Below are positions 6,332 through 25,340 of a DNA stretch of 25,826 nucleotides, piece after piece (position 1 is the stretch's first letter; every line of letters begins with the position of its first letter). The translations under genes and the position numbers were made by a program. This stretch comes from Candidatus Hermodarchaeota archaeon (GTDB lineage: Archaea; Asgardarchaeota; Lokiarchaeia; Sigyniarchaeales; SOKP01), in NCBI GenBank assembly GCA_048885925.1, contig JBHLLG010000037.1, forward strand, positions 1 to 25,826. The letters are read 5' to 3'. Under the pieces are notes generated by a model. It did not search any database. It saw nothing but the letters and a program-made list of their open reading frames with translations, and was not told the DNA's origin.

Positions 6332-9127
6332 ATGAAAGCAACTAACATTATAATTGTACCTGAAACTCATTGGGACCGTGAATGGTATCTTACTTTTCAA
6401 GAATTTCGCGCAAAACTAGTCATAATGATTGACAAGTTATTAGAAATTTTAAGAACTGACCCAGATTATAAAAATTTTGTTTTAGATGGACAAGTAATTC
6501 CGATTGAAGATTATTTAGAAGTAAGACCGGAGAGAGAAGAAGAAATTAAGAGATATGTAAAGGAACGAAGACTCTCTATTGGACCCATGTATGTATTGCC
6601 TGATGAGTTTTTAGTTAGTGGTGAATCATTAGTACGAAATTTTTTAATCGGGCATCAGTTAGCAAGAAAATTCGGGAGAGTTATGCAAACTGCTTATATT
6701 CCAGATCCTTTTGGACACATTGCTCAACTTCCACAAATTGTGCACAATTTTGAACTTTCATCAATTATTTTTGAAAGAGGGTTTGGAAATGAGTTTGAAG
6801 AGAATGGACTAAATATGGAATTTATTTGGGAATCTCCAGGAAAATCAGCGTCACTCTTAGCTATTCATCTAGTTAGAGGTTATGGTTCTTTACAAGATCT
6901 AGATCTTTCTTTAAAGGATGGCAAATATATAGAGGCATTGAATAAGATAAAGAGAGTAACCTCTGATATAGAAAATTATATTGCTACACCTATTGTACTA
7001 CTTAATAATGGTAGTGATCATCGGGAAGCATGTCCAGTTATTTCTGAAATAGTAAAACAATGGAATGAGTTAAATCCTGATATATTATTAGAGCAAAATG
7101 ACTTCGAATATTATATTAATAAAGTTATTTCTATAAAACCAAAATTAAAATCCTTTCAGGGTGAACTCCGAGCTAGTAAATATTCACCTGTTCTTTCGGG
7201 AGTACTTTCGGCAAGAATGTGGATAAAGCAAAGAAATACAGAAATAGAATATTTATATGAAAAATACGCTGAACCCTTTTCAACAATTACATGGATTTTT
7301 GATAAATATCAGAAGTTTGTTTATCCTAAGGAGTATTTTCGTACTGGGTTGAAATGGTTAATTAAAAATCATCCTCATGATTCAATATGTGGATGTAGCA
7401 TAGATCAAGTACATAATGAAATGATAACTCGATTTGATTGGGCTGAACAAATAGGAACAGAGGTATTTAATTTATCCATTTCTTATCTTGCTAATTTAAT
7501 TAAGCTTAAGCCTCAAAGTATTAATAGAATTGCCTTAATAGTTATAAATCCTTTACCATGGAAACGTAGAGATATCGTAATTTTCAATGGAATTTCAATG
7601 AAAAAAAATCAATCTCTCAAATTTCCTATAAGTTTTAAAATTGTAGATTCTGATGACAATGAGATTGAATACCAGAGTTTTTATCTAAAACAGAATGCTA
7701 GATTTCGCAGGGAAACCGATATAAACCATCAATTTTTCTTCTTAGCTGATACTCCCGCATGTGGTTTTAAGGTATATTACATCATACTTGAAGAGGAAAT
7801 TAACAAAAATCAAAATTCTAACAAAGAATTCGTTTTGGATGGAAATTTAATTGAGAATATCTTCTATAAAGTTGAAGTAAAAAGAAATGGTCAAATCAAC
7901 ATTTATGACAAAAAACGAGATATTTGGTATGAAGATATTTGCCAATTTGAAGATGTAGCTGACTGGGGGGATGAATACAATTTTTCAGGACCTACAAGTA
8001 AACAGATAGACAAGATATATACAACCAAAGATTCTGAAGTAGTAGAAATTTTAACTTTTCTAAACGGACCCTCTCATAAAATGATAAAGATCAAGTTGAT
8101 ATTGAAATTACCGGCTGCATTAACAGAAAATCGGTTAGGGAGAGAAAAGAAATTAGTTGAAAATTATATTGATCTTTATATTTCATTATACAAAAATATT
8201 AATCGAATAGATTTTAAAATCGATCTTGAAAATAACAGTAAGGATCACAGAATTAGAGTCCTCTTTCCCTCTAAAATTGAATCCGAAAAAATCTGGTGTG
8301 ATGGACACTTTTATATTGTTTCTAGAAATATTCTCTTACCAAATGGTAAACGTTGGGCTGAAAAACCTTCACGAACAAATCATCAAAAGGATTTTATAGC
8401 TTTAAATGATAATTCTAAATGTTTTGCAATTTTAAATCGAGGGTTACCTGAATATGAAGCAATAAAGAATGAGGATGGAACAATAACAATAGCCTTGACT
8501 CTGTTACGCTGTATTGAGTGGCTGTCAAGACAAAATCTAGATTGTAGAAGGAATGATGCAGGTCCAAGCCTTAAAACTCCTGGAGCTCAATGTATCGGAT
8601 CCCACGCATTTGACTTCTCATTAATTATTGAAGAATTTGAAAATAATTGGTTGGATTCAAAAATCCATATCAAGGGAAAAGAATTTAACTGTCCCTTAAG
8701 ACCCATATTCCCTTTAATGTTTAAATCACCTCTACGGAGAGCTGACTTATTATTGCTATCACGAATGGGTGTTTTATCTAATTCAAAAATATTGCCAGAA
8801 AAGAATAACGATTCCTATTTACCTAGTGAAATAAGTTTTCTTGAAATAGATAATAAAAATATTATGCTAAGCGCTTTAAAAAAATCAGAAGTAGGAGAAA
8901 GTCTAATTATTCGAATCTATAATATATCCCCTTCTTTAGAAAGTGCAAATTTGATTTTTTATAAGACTTTAGTTTTAAAAAAGGTTGAAATTGTAAATTT
9001 CTTAGAGGAAAGTCCAAAAATTCAAATTAAGGCTAAAATTCATAGTTTTCATAAAAATAATCTTAAAATAATATTAGAACCATATGTAATCGCTACATTT
9101 AAAATTGAATTTGATAAAATAAAGTGA
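6332..9127 (+). CDS. Alpha-mannosidase, glycoside hydrolase family 38
   Basis: THWDREW, LDGQ, PDPFGH, NGSDH and HDSICGCSID motifs. Confidence 0.93.
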   Translation: MKATNIIIVPETHWDREWYLTFQEFRAKLVIMIDKLLEILRTDPDYKNFVLDGQVIPIEDYLEVRPEREEEIKRYVKERRLSIGPMYVLPDEFLVSGESLVRNFLIGHQLARKFGRVMQTAYIPDPFGHIAQLPQIVHNFELSSIIFERGFGNEFEENGLNMEFIWESPGKSASLLAIHLVRGYGSLQDLDLSLKDGKYIEALNKIKRVTSDIENYIATPIVLLNNGSDHREACPVISEIVKQWNELNPDILLEQNDFEYYINKVISIKPKLKSFQGELRASKYSPVLSGVLSARMWIKQRNTEIEYLYEKYAEPFSTITWIFDKYQKFVYPKEYFRTGLKWLIKNHPHDSICGCSIDQVHNEMITRFDWAEQIGTEVFNLSISYLANLIKLKPQSINRIALIVINPLPWKRRDIVIFNGISMKKNQSLKFPISFKIVDSDDNEIEYQSFYLKQNARFRRETDINHQFFFLADTPACGFKVYYIILEEEINKNQNSNKEFVLDGNLIENIFYKVEVKRNGQINIYDKKRDIWYEDICQFEDVADWGDEYNFSGPTSKQIDKIYTTKDSEVVEILTFLNGPSHKMIKIKLILKLPAALTENRLGREKKLVENYIDLYISLYKNINRIDFKIDLENNSKDHRIRVLFPSKIESEKIWCDGHFYIVSRNILLPNGKRWAEKPSRTNHQKDFIALNDNSKCFAILNRGLPEYEAIKNEDGTITIALTLLRCIEWLSRQNLDCRRNDAGPSLKTPGAQCIGSHAFDFSLIIEEFENNWLDSKIHIKGKEFNCPLRPIFPLMFKSPLRRADLLLLSRMGVLSNSKILPEKNNDSYLPSEISFLEIDNKNIMLSALKKSEVGESLIIRIYNISPSLESANLIFYKTLVLKKVEIVNFLEESPKIQIKAKIHSFHKNNLKIILEPYVIATFKIEFDKIK

Positions 9128-17229: not shown

Positions 17230-17619
17230 TCATTTCACTTCCACGGTTCCTTCAGAACCATTAACAACTATTTTTTGTCCAGTCTTTATATTATTTATAT
17301 CAATTTGGTCTACGCAAGGAATTTCGCTAATGATACACCCTACAGCAACTATTGTATCGATTTGCTTATTAACTATTGCTGCAGGAGCTGTGTTGTTCTT
17401 TTTCATTCTATACATAGTATAAGAACCTACTGTTGATCCTTTACCTGTTGGAAAAACTAAAATCTTCCCTGTTATTGATTGACCTTCAATTTCATGTCCA
17501 ACTTCAACAATTTTCCCAGAATCGGGGTCAACACCACCATAAAATGAAATTCCATCCTTTGTTACAATTGCTTCTGCTTCTGCCATACCTTTATATATCT
17601 TTCTTCCTTCCATCTTCAT
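17230..17619 (-). CDS. Phosphomevalonate dehydratase small subunit (AcnX swivel domain, DUF126)
   Basis: ISFYGGVDPDSG, GQSITGKILVFPTGKGSTVGSY motifs; ATGA overlap with the large subunit gene. Confidence 0.92.
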   Translation of the reverse strand: MKMEGRKIYKGMAEAEAIVTKDGISFYGGVDPDSGKIVEVGHEIEGQSITGKILVFPTGKGSTVGSYTMYRMKKNNTAPAAIVNKQIDTIVAVGCIISEIPCVDQIDINNIKTGQKIVVNGSEGTVEVK

Positions 17620-18809
17620 TTTATTGCTTCCTCCACACAGTCCTCAATTGAACCAATTTTTACTTTAAATTTATTTTTTGCTCGACCATAATAACACGCT
17701 TTTGCTGAATCTACCATTATTCCATTGAAACGTCCCTTAATTGGAGCAACTACACAACAAGTATCCGCAGCAAACTTAGCTCCTGCAGTTTCAATTATTT
17801 TAGAATAACCAGCTTCGTCAGCTATTCTTTTTGTAGGTCGCGCTGTTGTAATCCAAAATTCCTTTTTTACTCTCTTCCCCTTTAAAAGGTTAGCAATCTT
17901 TTCAATTTCATAAATTGACGCATGAGGACAACCTATACTAACAAAATCTATTTCAGAATCATCGTCAATAAGTTCTGTTCGTGCTTTATCCAGATCTTCC
18001 TGGTTTATTTCAAAAAATATGTTACTTGGTTTAGGATATTTATTATATTCTGGAGTTATTCCTTCCATATGGAATAATGCTGTTCCACCATAAGTTGCGA
18101 TAGAAGCACAAAATGATTTAAGCTCCTCAACAGTTGTATTGTTAATTCCAGTTATATATGGAATTTTTTTTCCTAATTCAACCAACTTAGTTCCAATAAT
18201 TTTACCCAACACACCAAATTCATCTGTACCTTTAAGGGGGATATTAACTTTGACTAAAACTTCCCCATGACGATTTTCATCTAAATGATACCCATATTTT
18301 GGCGTTTTCCCAGTAATAGCAGAAGCTAATGCACTCGGACCCCCTTCACGGTTAGTTCGAGCACCAATAACCGAATTAGCATAACAAACAGCACTACTTT
18401 CAGCCCAAGCAATATGTTGACCAAAATGTGGCGTATTTCCTATTAAGTATGGTGTACATGAGCACGTTGTAATTATACCCATTTTAGCAAAAGCATCAAT
18501 TGCGCGATTTTGATTTTTTGCAAAATCTTTATCAATTCCTAAGGCTTGCCAATTTTCTCGGTCCATTCCAGCTGGATTTAAGGTTGTTAAAACTCTAACC
18601 TTCCCATCTTCTGCCATTTCACTCAAGAATTCTAAACCCGCTTCTCCAAGATTATCATATGAAACTCCGGCTATTTGGACACCATAAACATCGACCATAC
18701 ACTCAGCCTCAAATATATCACCTAAAGTGGTTAGTATCTCCATTGATTTTTGAGCTGCTCTTCCAAATTTCCCATCTAGCATTTCCTGTTCTTCTGAGGT
18801 TAATTTCAT
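17616..18809 (-). CDS. Phosphomevalonate dehydratase large subunit (AcnX catalytic domain, DUF521)
   Basis: TTLNP, CSCTPY, WAESSAV.YANSV.GARTNREG, GCPH and DTC motifs; mevalonate operon context; AGGTGA upstream. Confidence 0.92.
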   Translation of the reverse strand: MKLTSEEQEMLDGKFGRAAQKSMEILTTLGDIFEAECMVDVYGVQIAGVSYDNLGEAGLEFLSEMAEDGKVRVLTTLNPAGMDRENWQALGIDKDFAKNQNRAIDAFAKMGIITTCSCTPYLIGNTPHFGQHIAWAESSAVCYANSVIGARTNREGGPSALASAITGKTPKYGYHLDENRHGEVLVKVNIPLKGTDEFGVLGKIIGTKLVELGKKIPYITGINNTTVEELKSFCASIATYGGTALFHMEGITPEYNKYPKPSNIFFEINQEDLDKARTELIDDDSEIDFVSIGCPHASIYEIEKIANLLKGKRVKKEFWITTARPTKRIADEAGYSKIIETAGAKFAADTCCVVAPIKGRFNGIMVDSAKACYYGRAKNKFKVKIGSIEDCVEEAIK

Positions 18810-18824
18810 TTTTCACTCTTCACC

Positions 18825-20138
18825 TTAAAAATATTTGCTAATATCTACTTTTGGAAATTCTGCAATTTCAAAATTCTTACCTTTTACAACAAGTGGTTTA
18901 GTTAAATCAAAACCAATTTTTGTGGTCATCTTTGTTCCCGGCTCAGCACTCGGATCTAAACTGCTTCCTGGTTCTTTATCTTTAACTATCATTCTTGTAT
19001 CTCCTTGAAAGCGAGTCGCCATTGCCCATTCTACAGATAAAGGATCATAGATATTGATATCTTTATCAACAATAAAGGCATGCTTGCAGCTTGTATGACC
19101 TGTAAAAGTTCCCTCTATTGCTTTTTTTCCATCCTCCTCTGACATTTTATCAATTTGAACTATAGCATGTAACCAAGAAGACCCACCAGGACTAATATTT
19201 ACATCTAAACACTTTACTCCCAATTCATTTACCTTGTTGAATATTGTTGGTTCACGGGGCATACCCATTAGTATCTTATGTTCGAGAGCACCTGGTAAGA
19301 GAGCTTGCCAAATCGCATCCTTTCGATGGGTAATTCTTTTTACCTCAAAGATGGGCTCTTGTCTTATAATGTCATAAGTTTCGGTCAGGTCAACAAAAGG
19401 TCCCTCTGAATGTTTTTCTTCCAAGTAAACACGTCCCTCCAATACAAATTCAGCTTCTGCAGGAATAAGAAGATCTACAGAATTTGCCTTTGTTACTTTA
19501 ATAGGTTCTAAGGCATTAGCTATTTCTAACTCATTGACTCCAATATCTACCGAAGTTGCTCCAGCAATTAATATATTCGGAGTATTTCCTATACAGAAAG
19601 CGACATCTAGTTCACCGTTTTTTTCTAAAAATTTATGGAAGTGCCGACCACTTACAATTCGAGTAGAAAATTTGTTTTTAGAAAATTGCATTGCTCTATG
19701 GAAGTCTAGATTTTGACCATAGTCTGGATCTTGAGTAACAACAACAGCAGAACTAATATAATTTCCACCATCCTTTTCACAATGAAATAAAATTGGCAGT
19801 TTGTCTAAATCAATATTTGATTCAATAACTTGTTGACAGGGAGCATTAGTGACTACTTCTGGTTTTGAACGTTCTTTGATTGCTTTTGAGAGCATTGGTA
19901 TGAGATCTGCGGGAGTAACACCAAAATATGATGCAATTACATTTTTCGTGCAAAATACGTTACCAACAACACGAAATTCAGATTCTCTAACATTATTAAA
20001 TATTACTGGAGTTGGCTCAATTTCTTTTAATATTCCCGCGATTTCTAATTTTTTTGATACTTCAAGATTTACTTTTCGAAGAAGACCATCTTCATCAATT
20101 TGGTTTATGTATTCTCTAAATCCCATATTATTACTCAT
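18825..20138 (-). CDS. UbiD-family decarboxylase, probable trans-anhydromevalonate 5-phosphate decarboxylase
   Basis: PAEAEFVLEG, EGPFVD, VDKDINIYD, WAMATRFQ and GSSLDPS motifs; adjacent to the AcnX genes and mvk. Confidence 0.9.
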   Translation of the reverse strand: MSNNMGFREYINQIDEDGLLRKVNLEVSKKLEIAGILKEIEPTPVIFNNVRESEFRVVGNVFCTKNVIASYFGVTPADLIPMLSKAIKERSKPEVVTNAPCQQVIESNIDLDKLPILFHCEKDGGNYISSAVVVTQDPDYGQNLDFHRAMQFSKNKFSTRIVSGRHFHKFLEKNGELDVAFCIGNTPNILIAGATSVDIGVNELEIANALEPIKVTKANSVDLLIPAEAEFVLEGRVYLEEKHSEGPFVDLTETYDIIRQEPIFEVKRITHRKDAIWQALLPGALEHKILMGMPREPTIFNKVNELGVKCLDVNISPGGSSWLHAIVQIDKMSEEDGKKAIEGTFTGHTSCKHAFIVDKDINIYDPLSVEWAMATRFQGDTRMIVKDKEPGSSLDPSAEPGTKMTTKIGFDLTKPLVVKGKNFEIAEFPKVDISKYF

Positions 20139-20219
20139 TTCAAAAATTTAATTCTTATAATATAATTATTACTATTTTCAATAATTTTTAGAAGAGTTAC
20201 AGAAACACTTTTTATAAAA

Positions 20220-21500
20220 CTAAATGTTTTCATCATTTACCATTCTTTGGAATATTTCTTTTGCATAATCAATTCTGATTTTTTTATCTTTAACCAATCT
20301 ATTTGCAACTTTTTCTACTAAATTCTCAGGGACTCCTGCTTGCCTGGCAATATTTTTTGAATGAAGAGCCATGTGCCCTTCTTGAATACCTTCTGAAGCT
20401 AAAGCTCTTAACGCAGCTACATTTTGAGCTAAACCGACCGCAGCAGCTACTTGAGAAAGTTCGTTAGCACTTTTGATATTTAAAATCTTTAATGCTAGTC
20501 GAGCCATCGGATGAATTTTAGTCATCCCTCCAACAATACCAAGAGCAAGAGGAATTTCAATTTCTCCAACTAAATTTCCATTTGAGTCAACTTGAAATTT
20601 AGTCAAAGGAGAATATTTTCCCCTTAGTGCAGCATATGCGTGTGCTCCTGCCTCAATAGCCCTTGTGTCATTTCCTGTGGCCAATGTTAAAGCTATAATT
20701 CCGTTCATTATTCCTTTATTATGAGTTGTTGCTCTGTAGGGATCTACTAATGCAAATTCATAAGCATTTAGAATTCCTTCAACGACCTCTTCTCCACCTA
20801 ATAAATCTCTATCAAAAGTAGCTCTACTTTTAGCAATTCTATGTGTGGCTAAGTTCGATACTATCCGAAGATAAATTATCCCACCGCTGAGTTCTTCAAT
20901 ATAAGGACTTATTGCTTCAGCCATGGTATTTACTACATTAGCACCCATAGCATCTAAAACATCGACTAATAAATGTAAAACTAACATCATGCCCTTTCGA
21001 GTTTCCAGCTCTCTAATTTCGAAATCAAAGGCACCTCCACCCAATTGATTTAAGGTGGGATCTTGATCATTTGCCAATTTTAAAATCTTATCTTTATTTT
21101 CTAATATCTTCCTTTTAGTATTTTCAATGTCAGATAATTTGGTTATTTGTATTTGTGAAATCATAACAGATTTTACATTATCTGAATGGAATCCTCCATG
21201 TTTTCTAGCAAATTTAGCTGCATTTGAAGCTGCTGCTACAACTGAGGGCTCTTCAATAACCATGGGAATTATGTAATCTTTTTCATTTACTTTAAAGTTG
21301 AAAGCTAACCCAAGAGGTAACTGATAACTTCCAACTACATTTTCAATTAAACTATCAATTTGATTTTTGGTAAAGTATCCCAAATTGCGTAAAATCTTAA
21401 TTTCTTCTCCATTAAGATTAACAATTTTACCTAAGATTTGCTGACGTTCTTCAAATGATAATTTATAAAAACCAGAAATATCTGAATGGAATTTCTTCAT
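20220..21500 (-). CDS. mvaA: HMG-CoA reductase, class II (MvaA-type)
   Basis: IENVVG, EEPSVVAAAS, DAMGANVVN, RATTHNKGIMNG and GIQEGHMALH motifs; start at ATG 21500 or GTG 21512. Confidence 0.93.
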   Translation of the reverse strand: MKKFHSDISGFYKLSFEERQQILGKIVNLNGEEIKILRNLGYFTKNQIDSLIENVVGSYQLPLGLAFNFKVNEKDYIIPMVIEEPSVVAAASNAAKFARKHGGFHSDNVKSVMISQIQITKLSDIENTKRKILENKDKILKLANDQDPTLNQLGGGAFDFEIRELETRKGMMLVLHLLVDVLDAMGANVVNTMAEAISPYIEELSGGIIYLRIVSNLATHRIAKSRATFDRDLLGGEEVVEGILNAYEFALVDPYRATTHNKGIMNGIIALTLATGNDTRAIEAGAHAYAALRGKYSPLTKFQVDSNGNLVGEIEIPLALGIVGGMTKIHPMARLALKILNIKSANELSQVAAAVGLAQNVAALRALASEGIQEGHMALHSKNIARQAGVPENLVEKVANRLVKDKKIRIDYAKEIFQRMVNDENI

Positions 21501-21728
21501 TGTTTTATTCACGATTCTAAAAACTATCTATATAAAAATTTAATTTCTTAGCTTTTAGTGATTTTAAATTTAATATTCGAAAGAAAATTTTAATTTTTTT
21601 TGAATTTCATTTAAACTTCTTTTTATTACGAAACTAAATTATATTTATCAATATTAACATTAATCTGAAACAAAGGAAACATTGTATTATATCAGAAATT
21701 CATACTAATTATCATTAAAGAAAAAAAA

Positions 21729-23390
21729 CTAAACATGTTGAGGAATCGCTTGTCGTTTCTTTATATATTTATCTGGTATAGCAATATATATTGGACTCCA
21801 GTTTAAGAGTCCCTGTGCCTCGATATTTTGTTCATTAGGATATTCTACTCTCCTTACTTCATATTCTAAAGAAATACCTTTCCTTACATTTTCAGCAACT
21901 CTTACTAAACCTTTGCTCAAATAACTCAAATCACTGCCATTATTATAAGTAACTGGATCGCTTGTAAGTTTGGCAAAGAGAGGGAAAAATCTTTTATGAT
22001 ATCCTGTATGCCCTTTTGGACAGTGATCTAAACCTTTTATATTTGGGATAATGCATCCCTCATCGCAAAAGTAAAGTGTAAAACCCCTTTTATCGTTTTG
22101 CTCATGTTCAATAATATTACCAACTAGAACTTTCGGTTTCGCATGTCCATTTTTTATTAGTTCGTATTCCTTAACACTTTTCTTCTTTTTTAAATGGATA
22201 AAATCATTTATAGATGGACCATTTTGAACAATTTCTTTAAATCTCTCTTGAACTTTCAGCAACCCAGAAATACATGTAGCCCCTGACCCATAAGAACCAA
22301 AATAAATTATATCATATACATTAGTATGGTTTTCCATCAAAAATATTATCTGTGCCCAGATACTGGCATTATACATATTTCCAAAATGCATTGGAACTCT
22401 TAATTGAGGAAGCACTCGAGCTTTAATGTTAGTATTTACCCAATTTGAAAGTCTTTCTAATGTTGTTGATGAAAATCCTCTTTCATTTAATTTTAAATAA
22501 ATATATTCAGGTAATACAGTAACATCGTGTAAAAATGAATCAATTTTCTTTAGGATAGTTGATCTAAATTTGTTTTGTTCAAACTTAGGTAAATCACCTA
22601 TATGTTTTATCCAACGTTTTAAAATAATTTGTTGCATTATTTTTAATGGTAACTTTGAAAAGGGGGCATGAAATGTATAAAAATCTGCATGAAAATCCCC
22701 TACATTTTTAATTAAGTCATCATATGCCTTTAATTGAAAATCGAGATATGCATCCTGAGAATATTGCCCAAAAGCTCTTGCATTCTTATCATTCGGAGGT
22801 CTAAAGAAGTCATTAACATTACCAGATATTTTTCCAAACCGTTTGGAAAAAGTAGCTACTCGGGGGTCCTTAGAAATCACAAGTCCAATAGCCCCTGAGC
22901 CTTGTGTTGGTTCTCCTGGAGATCCAAGGTGATATGACGAAATGTCTGCGCTTATAATAAGAGCTTTGTTTATAATTTCTTTTTCAATCATCCCAATTGC
23001 ATTAAGAATTGCTAGCGTACCACCTGCACACGCGTTGTAGACATCCATTGTAAACGCGTTGGGCGAAATCTCAAGCATTTCGGCATATATGTTTGAGATA
23101 CTTTTAGCTGCATATACTTCTGTTTCAGTTCCAACAAATAAAGCGTCAATACTCTTAGGATCGATTCCACCTCTTAATATTGCATTATATCCTGCCTTTA
23201 ATCCAAGAGAGATGATATCCTCATCAACGTCAGGAATTCGCATCTCTTTAGACAAGAGTCCTTTGCTATATTTCTCCGGCTCTACCCCTCGTGCTATAGC
23301 AAGTTCATCTAGTTTAACGTAATGCCTTGGTGCATAAAAACCAAGCGAATCAATGCCTATGTCGCTGAAAAGATAATCGTTTGAAAGCAT
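21729..23390 (-). CDS. HMG-CoA synthase with a long internal segment and a Cys-containing C-terminal extension
   Basis: VGTET, NACAGG (catalytic Cys), GEPTQGSGA, DFFRP, FHAPF, GNMY and SYGSG motifs. Confidence 0.9.
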   Translation of the reverse strand: MLSNDYLFSDIGIDSLGFYAPRHYVKLDELAIARGVEPEKYSKGLLSKEMRIPDVDEDIISLGLKAGYNAILRGGIDPKSIDALFVGTETEVYAAKSISNIYAEMLEISPNAFTMDVYNACAGGTLAILNAIGMIEKEIINKALIISADISSYHLGSPGEPTQGSGAIGLVISKDPRVATFSKRFGKISGNVNDFFRPPNDKNARAFGQYSQDAYLDFQLKAYDDLIKNVGDFHADFYTFHAPFSKLPLKIMQQIILKRWIKHIGDLPKFEQNKFRSTILKKIDSFLHDVTVLPEYIYLKLNERGFSSTTLERLSNWVNTNIKARVLPQLRVPMHFGNMYNASIWAQIIFLMENHTNVYDIIYFGSYGSGATCISGLLKVQERFKEIVQNGPSINDFIHLKKKKSVKEYELIKNGHAKPKVLVGNIIEHEQNDKRGFTLYFCDEGCIIPNIKGLDHCPKGHTGYHKRFFPLFAKLTSDPVTYNNGSDLSYLSKGLVRVAENVRKGISLEYEVRRVEYPNEQNIEAQGLLNWSPIYIAIPDKYIKKRQAIPQHV

Positions 23391-24572: not shown

Positions 24573-25340
24573 ATGATAACCACTTTAGAAGAATTAAAAA
24601 AAGAAGCAAAGGATAAGCTACCTAAGCATATCGGGCTCATCGTTGATGGGATTTAGAAAGGATTTCCGTTTTTAACCAAAAACAGACGATGGGCGAAAAA
24701 GAGAAATCTAGATGTTAATTTAGGTCATTTAATTGGATATGAAAACCTTAAAAAGAGATTATTTGACTTTTTTGATGCGGGGATCCATTATCTAAGTTTA
24801 TATATTTTATCGCTTGAAAATGTGAGGAAGCGTAATCTACAAGAACTTGATTATATTTATAAGATAATGGTTAGAGCAGTAGATACTGTCATTAATGAAT
24901 CAATTGTAAAAGAAGAAAAGGTTAAATTTAATGTTATTGGAAGGACATATATGTTACCGGAAAAAGCAAAGCGGAAAATTGAAGAATTAGTTGAATTTAC
25001 TAAAGATCACGACCAAAACTATATTAATCTTTGTATAATGTATGATGGACACGAAGAAATTGTTGATGCAGTTAAAAGAATCATCAATGATGGAGTAAAG
25101 CCAGAACGAGTAAATACTGAATTAATTAAAAATTATCTCTATACTAAAAATTTCCCTCCCTTAGATTATATTATTAGAACAGGGATGAATGATGGTGCAA
25201 GAATCTCAGGATTTTTATTATGGGATTCTTCTTACGCAGAGTTTAAATTTCGAAATGATTTATGGCCTGATTATAATAAAGAGATGGTAATTGAAGATTT
25301 AGAAGATTATATTAATAGAATTCGACGCATGGGCCGATGA
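24573..25340 (+). CDS. uppS: Cis-prenyltransferase (UppS family), split by a 30-nt putative intron (exon 1 24573-24651, exon 2 24682-25340; 245 aa spliced)
   Basis: Reads PKHIGLIVDG [I*KGFPFLTK] NRRWAK, then GH..G, SLEN, YDG, DYIIRTG, RISGFLLWDSSYAE, WPD and the terminal RRMGR. The ORF track captured only the 3' part, from 24822. Confidence 0.93.
24652..24681 (+). other. Putative bulge-helix-bulge intron (30 nt) in uppS
   Basis: Insert TTTAGAAAGGATTTCCGTTTTTAACCAAAA. Intron stem TTAGAAAGG/CC(G)TTTTTAA, central helix ATGG/CCAA, bulges GA^T and AA^A, exon stem GCTCATCGT-TG/CA-(G)-ACGATGGGC. Removal gives GAT GGG AAC AGA CGA TGG. Confidence 0.83.

Follow-up and report, generated by a model that had tools for sequence, protein, structure and literature searches.

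A predicted bulge-helix-bulge intron in the uppS coding sequence of a Lokiarchaeia-type Asgard archaeon

Results

A 30-base insert splits the active-site motif of uppS

The stretch of DNA analysed here (the window) comprises the 25,826 nucleotides of contig JBHLLG010000037.1 of assembly GCA_048885925.1, deposited as a Candidatus Hermodarchaeota archaeon. It is contig C37 of a genome, G000, of 3.9 Mb and about 29% G+C, which is 95% complete and 4.4% contaminated. Near the end of the window a frame for the gene uppS runs on the forward strand from the ATG at 24573 to the TGA at 25340. Its translation reads ...KHIGLIVDG, then the ten codons I*KGFPFLTK, in which the asterisk is a stop, and then NRRWAKK.... 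As a first-pass annotation of this sequence had claimed, 30 extra bases containing an in-frame TAG (24654-24656) separate the Gly and the Asn of the DGNRRW motif, which is whole only once these bases are out. Deletion of 24652-24681 gives GGG-AAC (Gly-Asn) at the junction and a product of 245 amino acids, the open-frame length of most uninterrupted uppS orthologues. The part that follows the stop matches PF01255 in a profile search (E 2.5e-53, profile positions 5-219 of 219), and UPPS chains of the PDB match the product at E values of 7e-31 and below. The first residue after the insert aligns with N28 of Escherichia coli UPPS (1jp3_A, residues 28-244), the insert position being between the equivalents of G27 and N28, and the Asp right before the insert is presumably the catalytic one. 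These matches identify the predicted product of uppS as a member of the cis-prenyltransferase family (PF01255), the enzyme making the polyprenyl carrier lipid. PF01255 matches the whole of G000 once, giving a single uppS copy. The homologues that are 68-88% identical come from records titled Promethearchaeota or Promethearchaeia, that is, Lokiarchaeia-type Asgard archaea. We interpret 24652-24681 as a bulge-helix-bulge (BHB) intron of the messenger RNA, lying within the uppS coding sequence, and on the sequence evidence assembled below we give this interpretation a probability of about 0.85 (Table 1).

Comparison of uppS across related genomes, which the first-pass annotation had proposed, finds 11 more species with the insert at this position. 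Of 40 related genomes sampled, 38 had a PF01255 match, and in the genus of G000 the match was found in 23 of 24 genomes (G000 counted). In six of these 23 (G000, G003, G006, G009, G010 and G022) the match starts at profile position 2-5 in an open frame of 225-227 amino acids, and in all six genes the Gly and Asn codons are separated by exactly 30 additional bases; 16 are full length with an uninterrupted DGNRRWA, and one is cut by a contig end. A species-level scan with one genome per species yielded 68 loci, 66 of which include the N-terminal part. The insert is present in 11 of the 66, five of them identical with records of the first sample and six new (L059, L072, L079, L085, L087 and L089). 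The total is 12 distinct insert-bearing genes (G000 and 11 others), each with 30 bases at the same site, while 46 Promethearchaeota-type uppS genes read DG and NRRWA with nothing between. The inserts are diverged yet clearly alike, with a mean pairwise difference of 0.27. Because TAG, TAA and TGA all occur among the 12, with two different stops in L079 and none in L089, the stop codon is shown to be incidental to whatever maintains the insert, and both a change of genetic code and a single read-through signal are excluded. In L089, from another Promethearchaeota MAG, the insert (571-600) has TGG where others have TAG, and a gene caller would read 10 extra active-site residues there; UppS proteins of this kind in databases may be unspliced artefacts.

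Table 1. Location of the predicted uppS intron, its exons and its RNA fold (window coordinates), and of further candidate introns in genome G000
Feature	Position	Strand	Description and basis
uppS exon 1	24573..24651	+	ATG, 26 codons to Asp-Gly and first base of the Asn codon; from translation
Predicted 30-nt BHB intron	24652..24681	+	In-frame TAG 24654-24656; absent from 46 orthologues, present in 11 other species
uppS exon 2	24682..25340	+	Last two bases of the Asn codon, RRWA... to TGA; PF01255 match
Outer (exon-exon) helix, 5' strand	24635..24645	+	Partner 24683-24694 with G24685 bulged; alignment pairs 20-60 and 21-59
Central helix, 5' strand (exon 1)	24646..24649	+	Partner 24676-24679; 3 of 4 pairs; alignment pair 23-54 covaries
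5' three-base bulge	24650..24652	+	Predicted cut after 24651; geometry test
Inner intron hairpin	24653..24675	+	83% of cells paired; both-side changes in 4 of 10 pairs
Central helix, 3' strand (intron)	24676..24679	+	Alignment pair counts
3' three-base bulge	24680..24682	+	Predicted cut after 24681; geometry test
Outer helix, 3' strand	24683..24694	+	In exon 2: third base of Asn codon and Arg-Arg-Trp-Ala codons; pair counts, codon choice
Candidate 32-nt insert, Prismane/CO-dehydrogenase-family gene	G000:C4:38336-38367 (L111 2336-2367)	+	Canonical BHB; 4 central, 6 outer and 8 inner pairs
Candidate 32-nt insert, 4Fe-4S protein gene	G000:C31:18957-18988 (L109 957-988)	-	Canonical BHB; 4/8/10 pairs
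Candidate 31-nt insert, Ras-family GTPase gene	G000:C12:62467-62497 (L177 1567-1597)	-	4-pair central helix, just 2 outer pairs

The predicted RNA fold and its cut register

The fold of positions 24630-24700 is more than chance, because its minimum free energy (MFE) of -20.2 kcal/mol lies below those of all 200 shuffled sequences (mean -13.06 +/- 2.47 kcal/mol, z -2.89, 0 of 200 as low). When the G000 sequence is constrained to the BHB structure, the resulting fold is 1.6 kcal/mol above the MFE. The structure agrees in large part with the one drawn by the first-pass annotation. The exon stem between 24635-24643 and 24686-24694 has nine pairs, one of them G-U, and the inner intron hairpin with a four-base loop is present as drawn. 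The proposed extension of the stem by TG/CA is right in that T24644-A24684 and G24645-C24683 pair, but they do so only with G24685 bulged out. The central helix ATGG/CCAA retains three standard pairs and lacks the fourth, A24646 facing A24679. The description as a near-canonical BHB was generous, the motif being a relaxed one with two or three central pairs, although the BHB geometry itself is found in 12 of 12 sequences.

Alignment of 24625-24704 with the 11 counterparts is gap-free. Standard pairs occupy 78.3% of its 300 cells, and shifting the 3' partners by one to three columns lowers this to 37-48%; the covariation score is 0.213, a value that none of 500 shuffles reaches (0.142 +/- 0.013). 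Both sides have changed in 6 of the 25 pairs (14 cells), the pairs beside both bulges included. The best-kept pairs are the two flanking each bulge. Pairs 21-59 and 24-53 are GC in all 12 sequences, pair 20-60 is UA in eight and GC in four, and pair 23-54 is UA in eight and CG in four; column 28 (24652) varies. At pairs 20-60 and 23-54, synonymous exon changes (GAT/GAC and GTT/GTG among them) covary with changes in the Arg codon or the intron.

The archaeal splicing endonuclease EndA cuts inside a bulge after its second base. Six cut registers were compared, and only the one in which exon 1 stops at column 27 (24651) shows BHB geometry. It shows it throughout the 12 sequences, with 2-3 central, 3-4 outer and 5-9 inner pairs, where neighbouring registers have almost none. 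This register is one of the three that preserve Asp-Gly-Asn, and it is the one that the first-pass annotation had named: cuts after 24651 and after 24681, 30 nucleotides removed and a Gly-Asn junction. The elements of a relaxed BHB, namely three-base bulges on opposite strands and four positions apart with an outer and an inner helix, are found in 12 of 12. The same cut rule also matched the boundaries that orthologues define in two other genes (C4 and C31, see below). For the position of the cuts, the literature states only "one cut in each bulge" (preprint 10.64898/2026.10.13.758758).

In the proposed mechanism, exon 1, exon 2 and the intron would pair in the transcript to form an outer helix, a short central helix between the two bulges on opposite strands, and an intron hairpin. 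EndA would cut after the second base of each bulge, and the ligase RtcB would join the exons, restoring an intact DGNRRW active-site motif in the full-length enzyme; unspliced uppS RNA would give only a 27-residue peptide. We infer splicing of the uppS RNA in each of its steps: cleavage by EndA, ligation, and acceptance of the relaxed central helix by the enzyme.

The candidate machinery is encoded in G000. An open reading frame (ORF) of 198 amino acids matches the catalytic subunit of EndA (PF01974, E 7e-29, with the N-domain PF02778), and RtcB is matched at E 5e-171. Asgard archaea have been described as possessing an (alpha-beta)2 EndA with an L1 loop linked to a broad substrate range (PMC5829648), and (alpha-beta)2 enzymes are known to accept relaxed motifs (PMC5829648, PMC10485636). 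Two EndA paralogues have been reported in 44 of 60 Asgard genomes (preprint 10.64898/2026.10.13.758758). The program aragorn calls only 31 tRNA genes in the 95%-complete G000, 19 of them with an intron, which agrees with published accounts of Asgard tRNA genes as extensively and in part cryptically interrupted (PMC11291895; preprint 10.64898/2026.10.13.758758).

Several observations weigh against a BHB intron at this site. The motif is relaxed in all 12 sequences, its central helix having two or three standard pairs and never the four of a canonical BHB: pair 25-52 is G-A in 10 sequences and GC in two, and pair 22-55 is unpaired in six and AU in six. The helix beside the 3' bulge has just two or three pairs before a bulged G. 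Forcing the BHB fold costs 1.5-7.4 kcal/mol relative to the MFE across the 12 sequences. The covariation rests on 12 related sequences, and relatedness alone may lift the score above that of shuffles. In the three most distant insert-bearing genes 5-6 of the 11 outer pairs form, which is no better than in genes without the insert. The structural (beta) subunit of EndA was not found in G000 with PF01974 (E up to 10), PF02778 (E up to 1) or a tblastn search with the alpha subunit; the best candidate, on contig C78, is weak (E 1.0, inside a 188-aa ORF). The tRNA introns called by aragorn did not line up with hits to the BHB geometry, a comparison that carries no information because such intron calls are unreliable for multiply interrupted tRNAs, and the cut-site geometry was validated instead on the orthologue-defined boundaries of C4 and C31. 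Finally, a search of sequencing runs returned no RNA run containing the stretch, and three metatranscriptomes of the same study placed no read on it, results that tell nothing either way.

The imperfect central helix in all 12 sequences and the negative search for a beta subunit would also suit removal of the bases from the RNA by another route, such as a different nuclease-ligase pair or a guide-dependent process. We regard this as improbable, although the best placed of the alternatives: the register predicted from the BHB geometry is the one that restores the frame and, in two other genes, coincides with boundaries defined by orthologues; EndA and RtcB are both present in G000; and relaxed motifs are cut by (alpha-beta)2 enzymes (PMC5829648, PMC10485636).

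Further candidate introns in the genome

The uppS element appears to be one of several such elements in G000 rather than a one-off. Both strands of the genome were scanned for BHB geometry around putative introns of 16-150 nt, combined with an ORF test in which splicing had to join at least 20 and at least 40 open codons, at least 150 in all, in a frame that is interrupted if unspliced. Candidates were ranked by the closeness of the forced BHB fold to the MFE (dE); the scan is not a census. Among 7,273 short candidates (16-64 nt), four lie at dE below 5 kcal/mol: uppS, C4+ 38336-38367, C31- 18957-18988 and C19+ 7038-7064. With a mirrored geometry as decoy, 7,269 candidates were obtained, and one fell below this value, against the four of the real geometry.

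The C4 insert lies in a Prismane/CO-dehydrogenase-family gene whose exon translations match profile positions 302-457 and 458-512. The open frames of its relatives are about 635 amino acids long, against 565 in G000, and in 18 of 18 orthologue loci the flanks abut with no bases between them, exactly at the predicted cuts. Among the sampled orthologues this insert therefore appears to be specific to the species (1 of 19). Removal of the C31 insert restores a CxxCxxCxxxC motif and brings the product to 185 amino acids, in line with the 184-185 of close orthologues. At 22 of 24 orthologue loci, one codon occupies the place at which G000 has the same codon and 32 further bases. The other two, ferredoxin orthologues of the species G016 (C24, L152) and G023 (C29, L153), have 32-nt inserts that differ from the one in G000 and lie no more than one base from the C31 site, and these fold as a BHB with a 12-pair exon-exon helix. 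They are either a diverged homologue of the C31 insert or a second insertion at a site capable of forming the motif. The C12 insert is a candidate with a weaker fold than those of C4 and C31. It divides a Ras-family gene, with positions 1-34 of the Ras profile matched ahead of the insert and 38-157 behind it. This is the sole split case among 86 Ras-family matches in G000, and removal of the insert restores a TIGVDF-type motif. A blastn-short search of G000 found no second copy of any of three inserts.

Inserts of 31 and 32 nucleotides shift the frame, and the genes concerned can therefore be rescued only if the bases are taken out of the RNA; neither read-through nor bypass, as conceivable for uppS, can explain them. 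In the programmed translational bypass of phage T4 gene 60, the ribosome takes off at the codon before a stop and lands downstream, which needs matched take-off and landing codons. By analogy, a ribosome on the uppS RNA would leave at the Gly codon and land 30 bases downstream, and the Gly codon shortly before an in-frame stop, the stable hairpin after it and the in-frame gap all suit such an event. The codons do not: before Asn stands AAA, ATA, ATT, GAA, GTT, GGA or GGT, leaving a match to Gly possible in at most two of the 12 genes (L079 and L085). Moreover, the stop does not directly follow the Gly codon and is missing from L089, exon-exon pairs far from the take-off site covary, and the 31- and 32-nt sibling inserts of G000 share the fold. 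Bypass is thus very improbable.

The fourth of the top-ranked candidates, C19+ 7038-7064 (L110, 27 nt), was rejected as a false frame that matches relatives only through many stops. Its fold is a near-perfect BHB-type structure (dE 0.0, -18 kcal/mol) with no match in Rfam, and a multi-copy gene family may be encoded there on the opposite strand or in a different frame. Two other hits, C1+ 28688-28709 and C6- 71899-71921, are false positives of the scan lying inside intact ORFs of 429 and 916 amino acids, respectively, and C19+ 29858-29898 (FmdE) is a further scan candidate. Some Ras-family genes of G000 show irregularities of other kinds. The gene at C21:14066-14575 (-) has one in-frame TAA and no extra length relative to its two tandem neighbours, and is apparently a copy with a point mutation or a sequencing error rather than an intron-bearing one. 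On the forward strand of C17, 46579-47241 and 52621-53232 show odd orders of profile positions (1-54 then 29-161, and 30-158, with a TAA, then 1-53, respectively), which may reflect duplication or permutation.

Selection on the gene and the insert

An in-frame stop within an active-site motif and a patchy presence among species could also mark a decaying pseudogene, or a gene killed by a neutral insertion. The gene is, however, under purifying selection and not a pseudogene: it is single copy, its exons are open and its ratio of non-synonymous to synonymous substitution rates (dN/dS) is 0.07-0.11. The last value holds for 9 of 10 pairs, those for which it could be computed, and includes pairs inside clades in which every gene carries the insert. 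In all 12 insert-bearing genes 219 codons remain open after the insert, and exon 1 is intact with a conserved N-terminus. The first-pass annotation had named a second intact uppS, with decay of this copy, as a danger to its own interpretation; the copy described here is the sole uppS of a 95%-complete genome. The insert itself is also constrained: its length is invariant, and in 10 of 10 pairs it has changed more slowly than synonymous sites, with 1-10 differences per 30 bases against synonymous-site differences (pS) of 0.31-0.74 (in one pair, 1 in 30 bases against a pS of 0.46). Inactivation of the gene is accordingly no more probable than bypass. Least probable of all is translation of the insert by stop read-through or recoding into a UppS with 10 additional residues, an idea that the length, a multiple of three, and the stop-free L089, through which a gene caller reads, would allow, but that must contend with three kinds of stop among the 12 genes and two in L079, which no single recoding fits, with ordinary long ORFs under genetic code 11 elsewhere in the window, with a position between the equivalents of G27 and N28 of the E. 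coli enzyme, and with changes that track base pairing rather than codon positions.

The codon choice in the exons fits the outer helix of the predicted BHB intron, as would be expected if the exons adapt to the intron. On average 8.58 of the 11 outer-helix pairs form in the 12 insert-bearing genes and 6.24 in the 46 genes without the insert (Mann-Whitney p 0.0007, a value overstated by the relatedness of the rows). Pair 20-60 forms in 12 of 12 insert-bearing and 6 of 46 insert-less genes. The Asn codon is AAC in all 12 insert-bearing genes and AAT in most of the 46, and Leu is encoded by the rare CTC in most genes with the insert.

A quick maximum-likelihood tree of UppS was built from the 59 rows left when the fetched loci had passed a motif filter and been de-duplicated, nine bacterial rows having been dropped and other-family loci having failed the filter. 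The 12 insert-bearing rows need at least seven changes on this tree, and well-supported branches impose four of these. Homology among the inserts makes repeated loss, or else recombinational transfer, a likelier history than repeated gain; the gene tree does not discriminate between these.

The surroundings of uppS

An EamA transporter gene adjoins uppS, and the reverse strand beside it (17616-23390) carries genes for HMG-CoA synthase, HMG-CoA reductase, a UbiD-family protein and an aconitase-X-family protein. Together these surroundings form an isoprenoid/mevalonate gene neighbourhood. The remaining genes of the window are long, ordinary ORFs under code 11. One of them, at 529-2442 on the forward strand, contains two Ras-family matches (760-1086 and 1942-2418) and would encode a protein with two GTPase domains.

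Discussion

An intron in the cbf5 pre-mRNA of Crenarchaeota was reportedly described by Watanabe in 2002. In Desulfurococcales and Sulfolobales, EndA-dependent splicing of the cbf5 coding-sequence intron is established, and species differ through its gain and loss (Yokobori 2009, PMC2738675). Like the uppS insert, the cbf5 intron is patchy among relatives and mis-annotated by gene callers (PMC2738675, PMC10485636). It differs in that it lies in another gene, in Crenarchaeota and not in Asgard archaea, and in that splicing was demonstrated by experiment there and is deduced here. The cbf5 gene of G000 is itself uninterrupted, and this genome, unlike the cbf5 case, has at least three further candidate mRNA introns.

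The second relevant system is the mRNA of Haloferax volcanii HVO_1309, in which an intron of the 5' untranslated region (UTR) is cut (PMC7714728). The likeness is that the archaeal splicing endonuclease acts on an mRNA, a substrate other than tRNA or rRNA (PMC7714728, PMC10485636). The difference is that the intron occupies the 5' UTR instead of the coding sequence, and that the host enzyme is an alpha2 form that needs a strict hBHBh' motif. These two introns, in cbf5 of some Crenarchaeota and in the Haloferax 5' UTR, are the confirmed archaeal mRNA introns according to the available parts of PMC10485636 and PMC7714728, and the former, a review, considers that more are probably still to be discovered.

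The non-canonical tRNA introns of Asgard archaea resemble the uppS insert: they are short, have relaxed motifs, presumably depend on the same machinery and have been gained independently many times among closely related species (PMC11291895; preprint 10.64898/2026.10.13.758758). Their host RNA is tRNA and not mRNA, and the available parts of these two sources do not mention introns in protein-coding genes. No paper describing BHB introns in protein-coding genes of Asgard archaea, or in uppS, came up in a literature search that did not extend to subscription journals or supplements. In both uppS and the bypass of T4 gene 60 the gap is in frame, a stop lies close to a Gly codon and a hairpin is present; uppS differs in having no matched take-off and landing codons, and in having 31-32-nt BHB siblings in other genes.

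The predicted uppS intron is thus of a known type, a BHB intron in mRNA, here in Asgard archaea. It would be a coding-sequence intron in an essential lipid-carrier gene, found in 12 species and present or absent between close relatives, and G000 holds at least two frame-shifting sibling inserts besides it. This Lokiarchaeia-type Asgard archaeon probably splices some of its messenger RNAs. For the group as a whole we lean slightly towards a broader view, in which Lokiarchaeia-type Asgard archaea would maintain a small, turning-over population of endonuclease-type introns of about 30 bases in ordinary protein genes, some such introns being confined to one species among those sampled, gains in mRNA would be ongoing in these closest archaeal relatives of eukaryotes, and the expression of essential genes would need splicing by the tRNA machinery. 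If splicing is confirmed, EndA would have a role on mRNA in this lineage, and gene callers would be mislabelling such genes as truncated, split or pseudogenes. These introns would then offer a natural system in which to follow, on the archaeal side of eukaryogenesis, how protein genes gain and lose introns.

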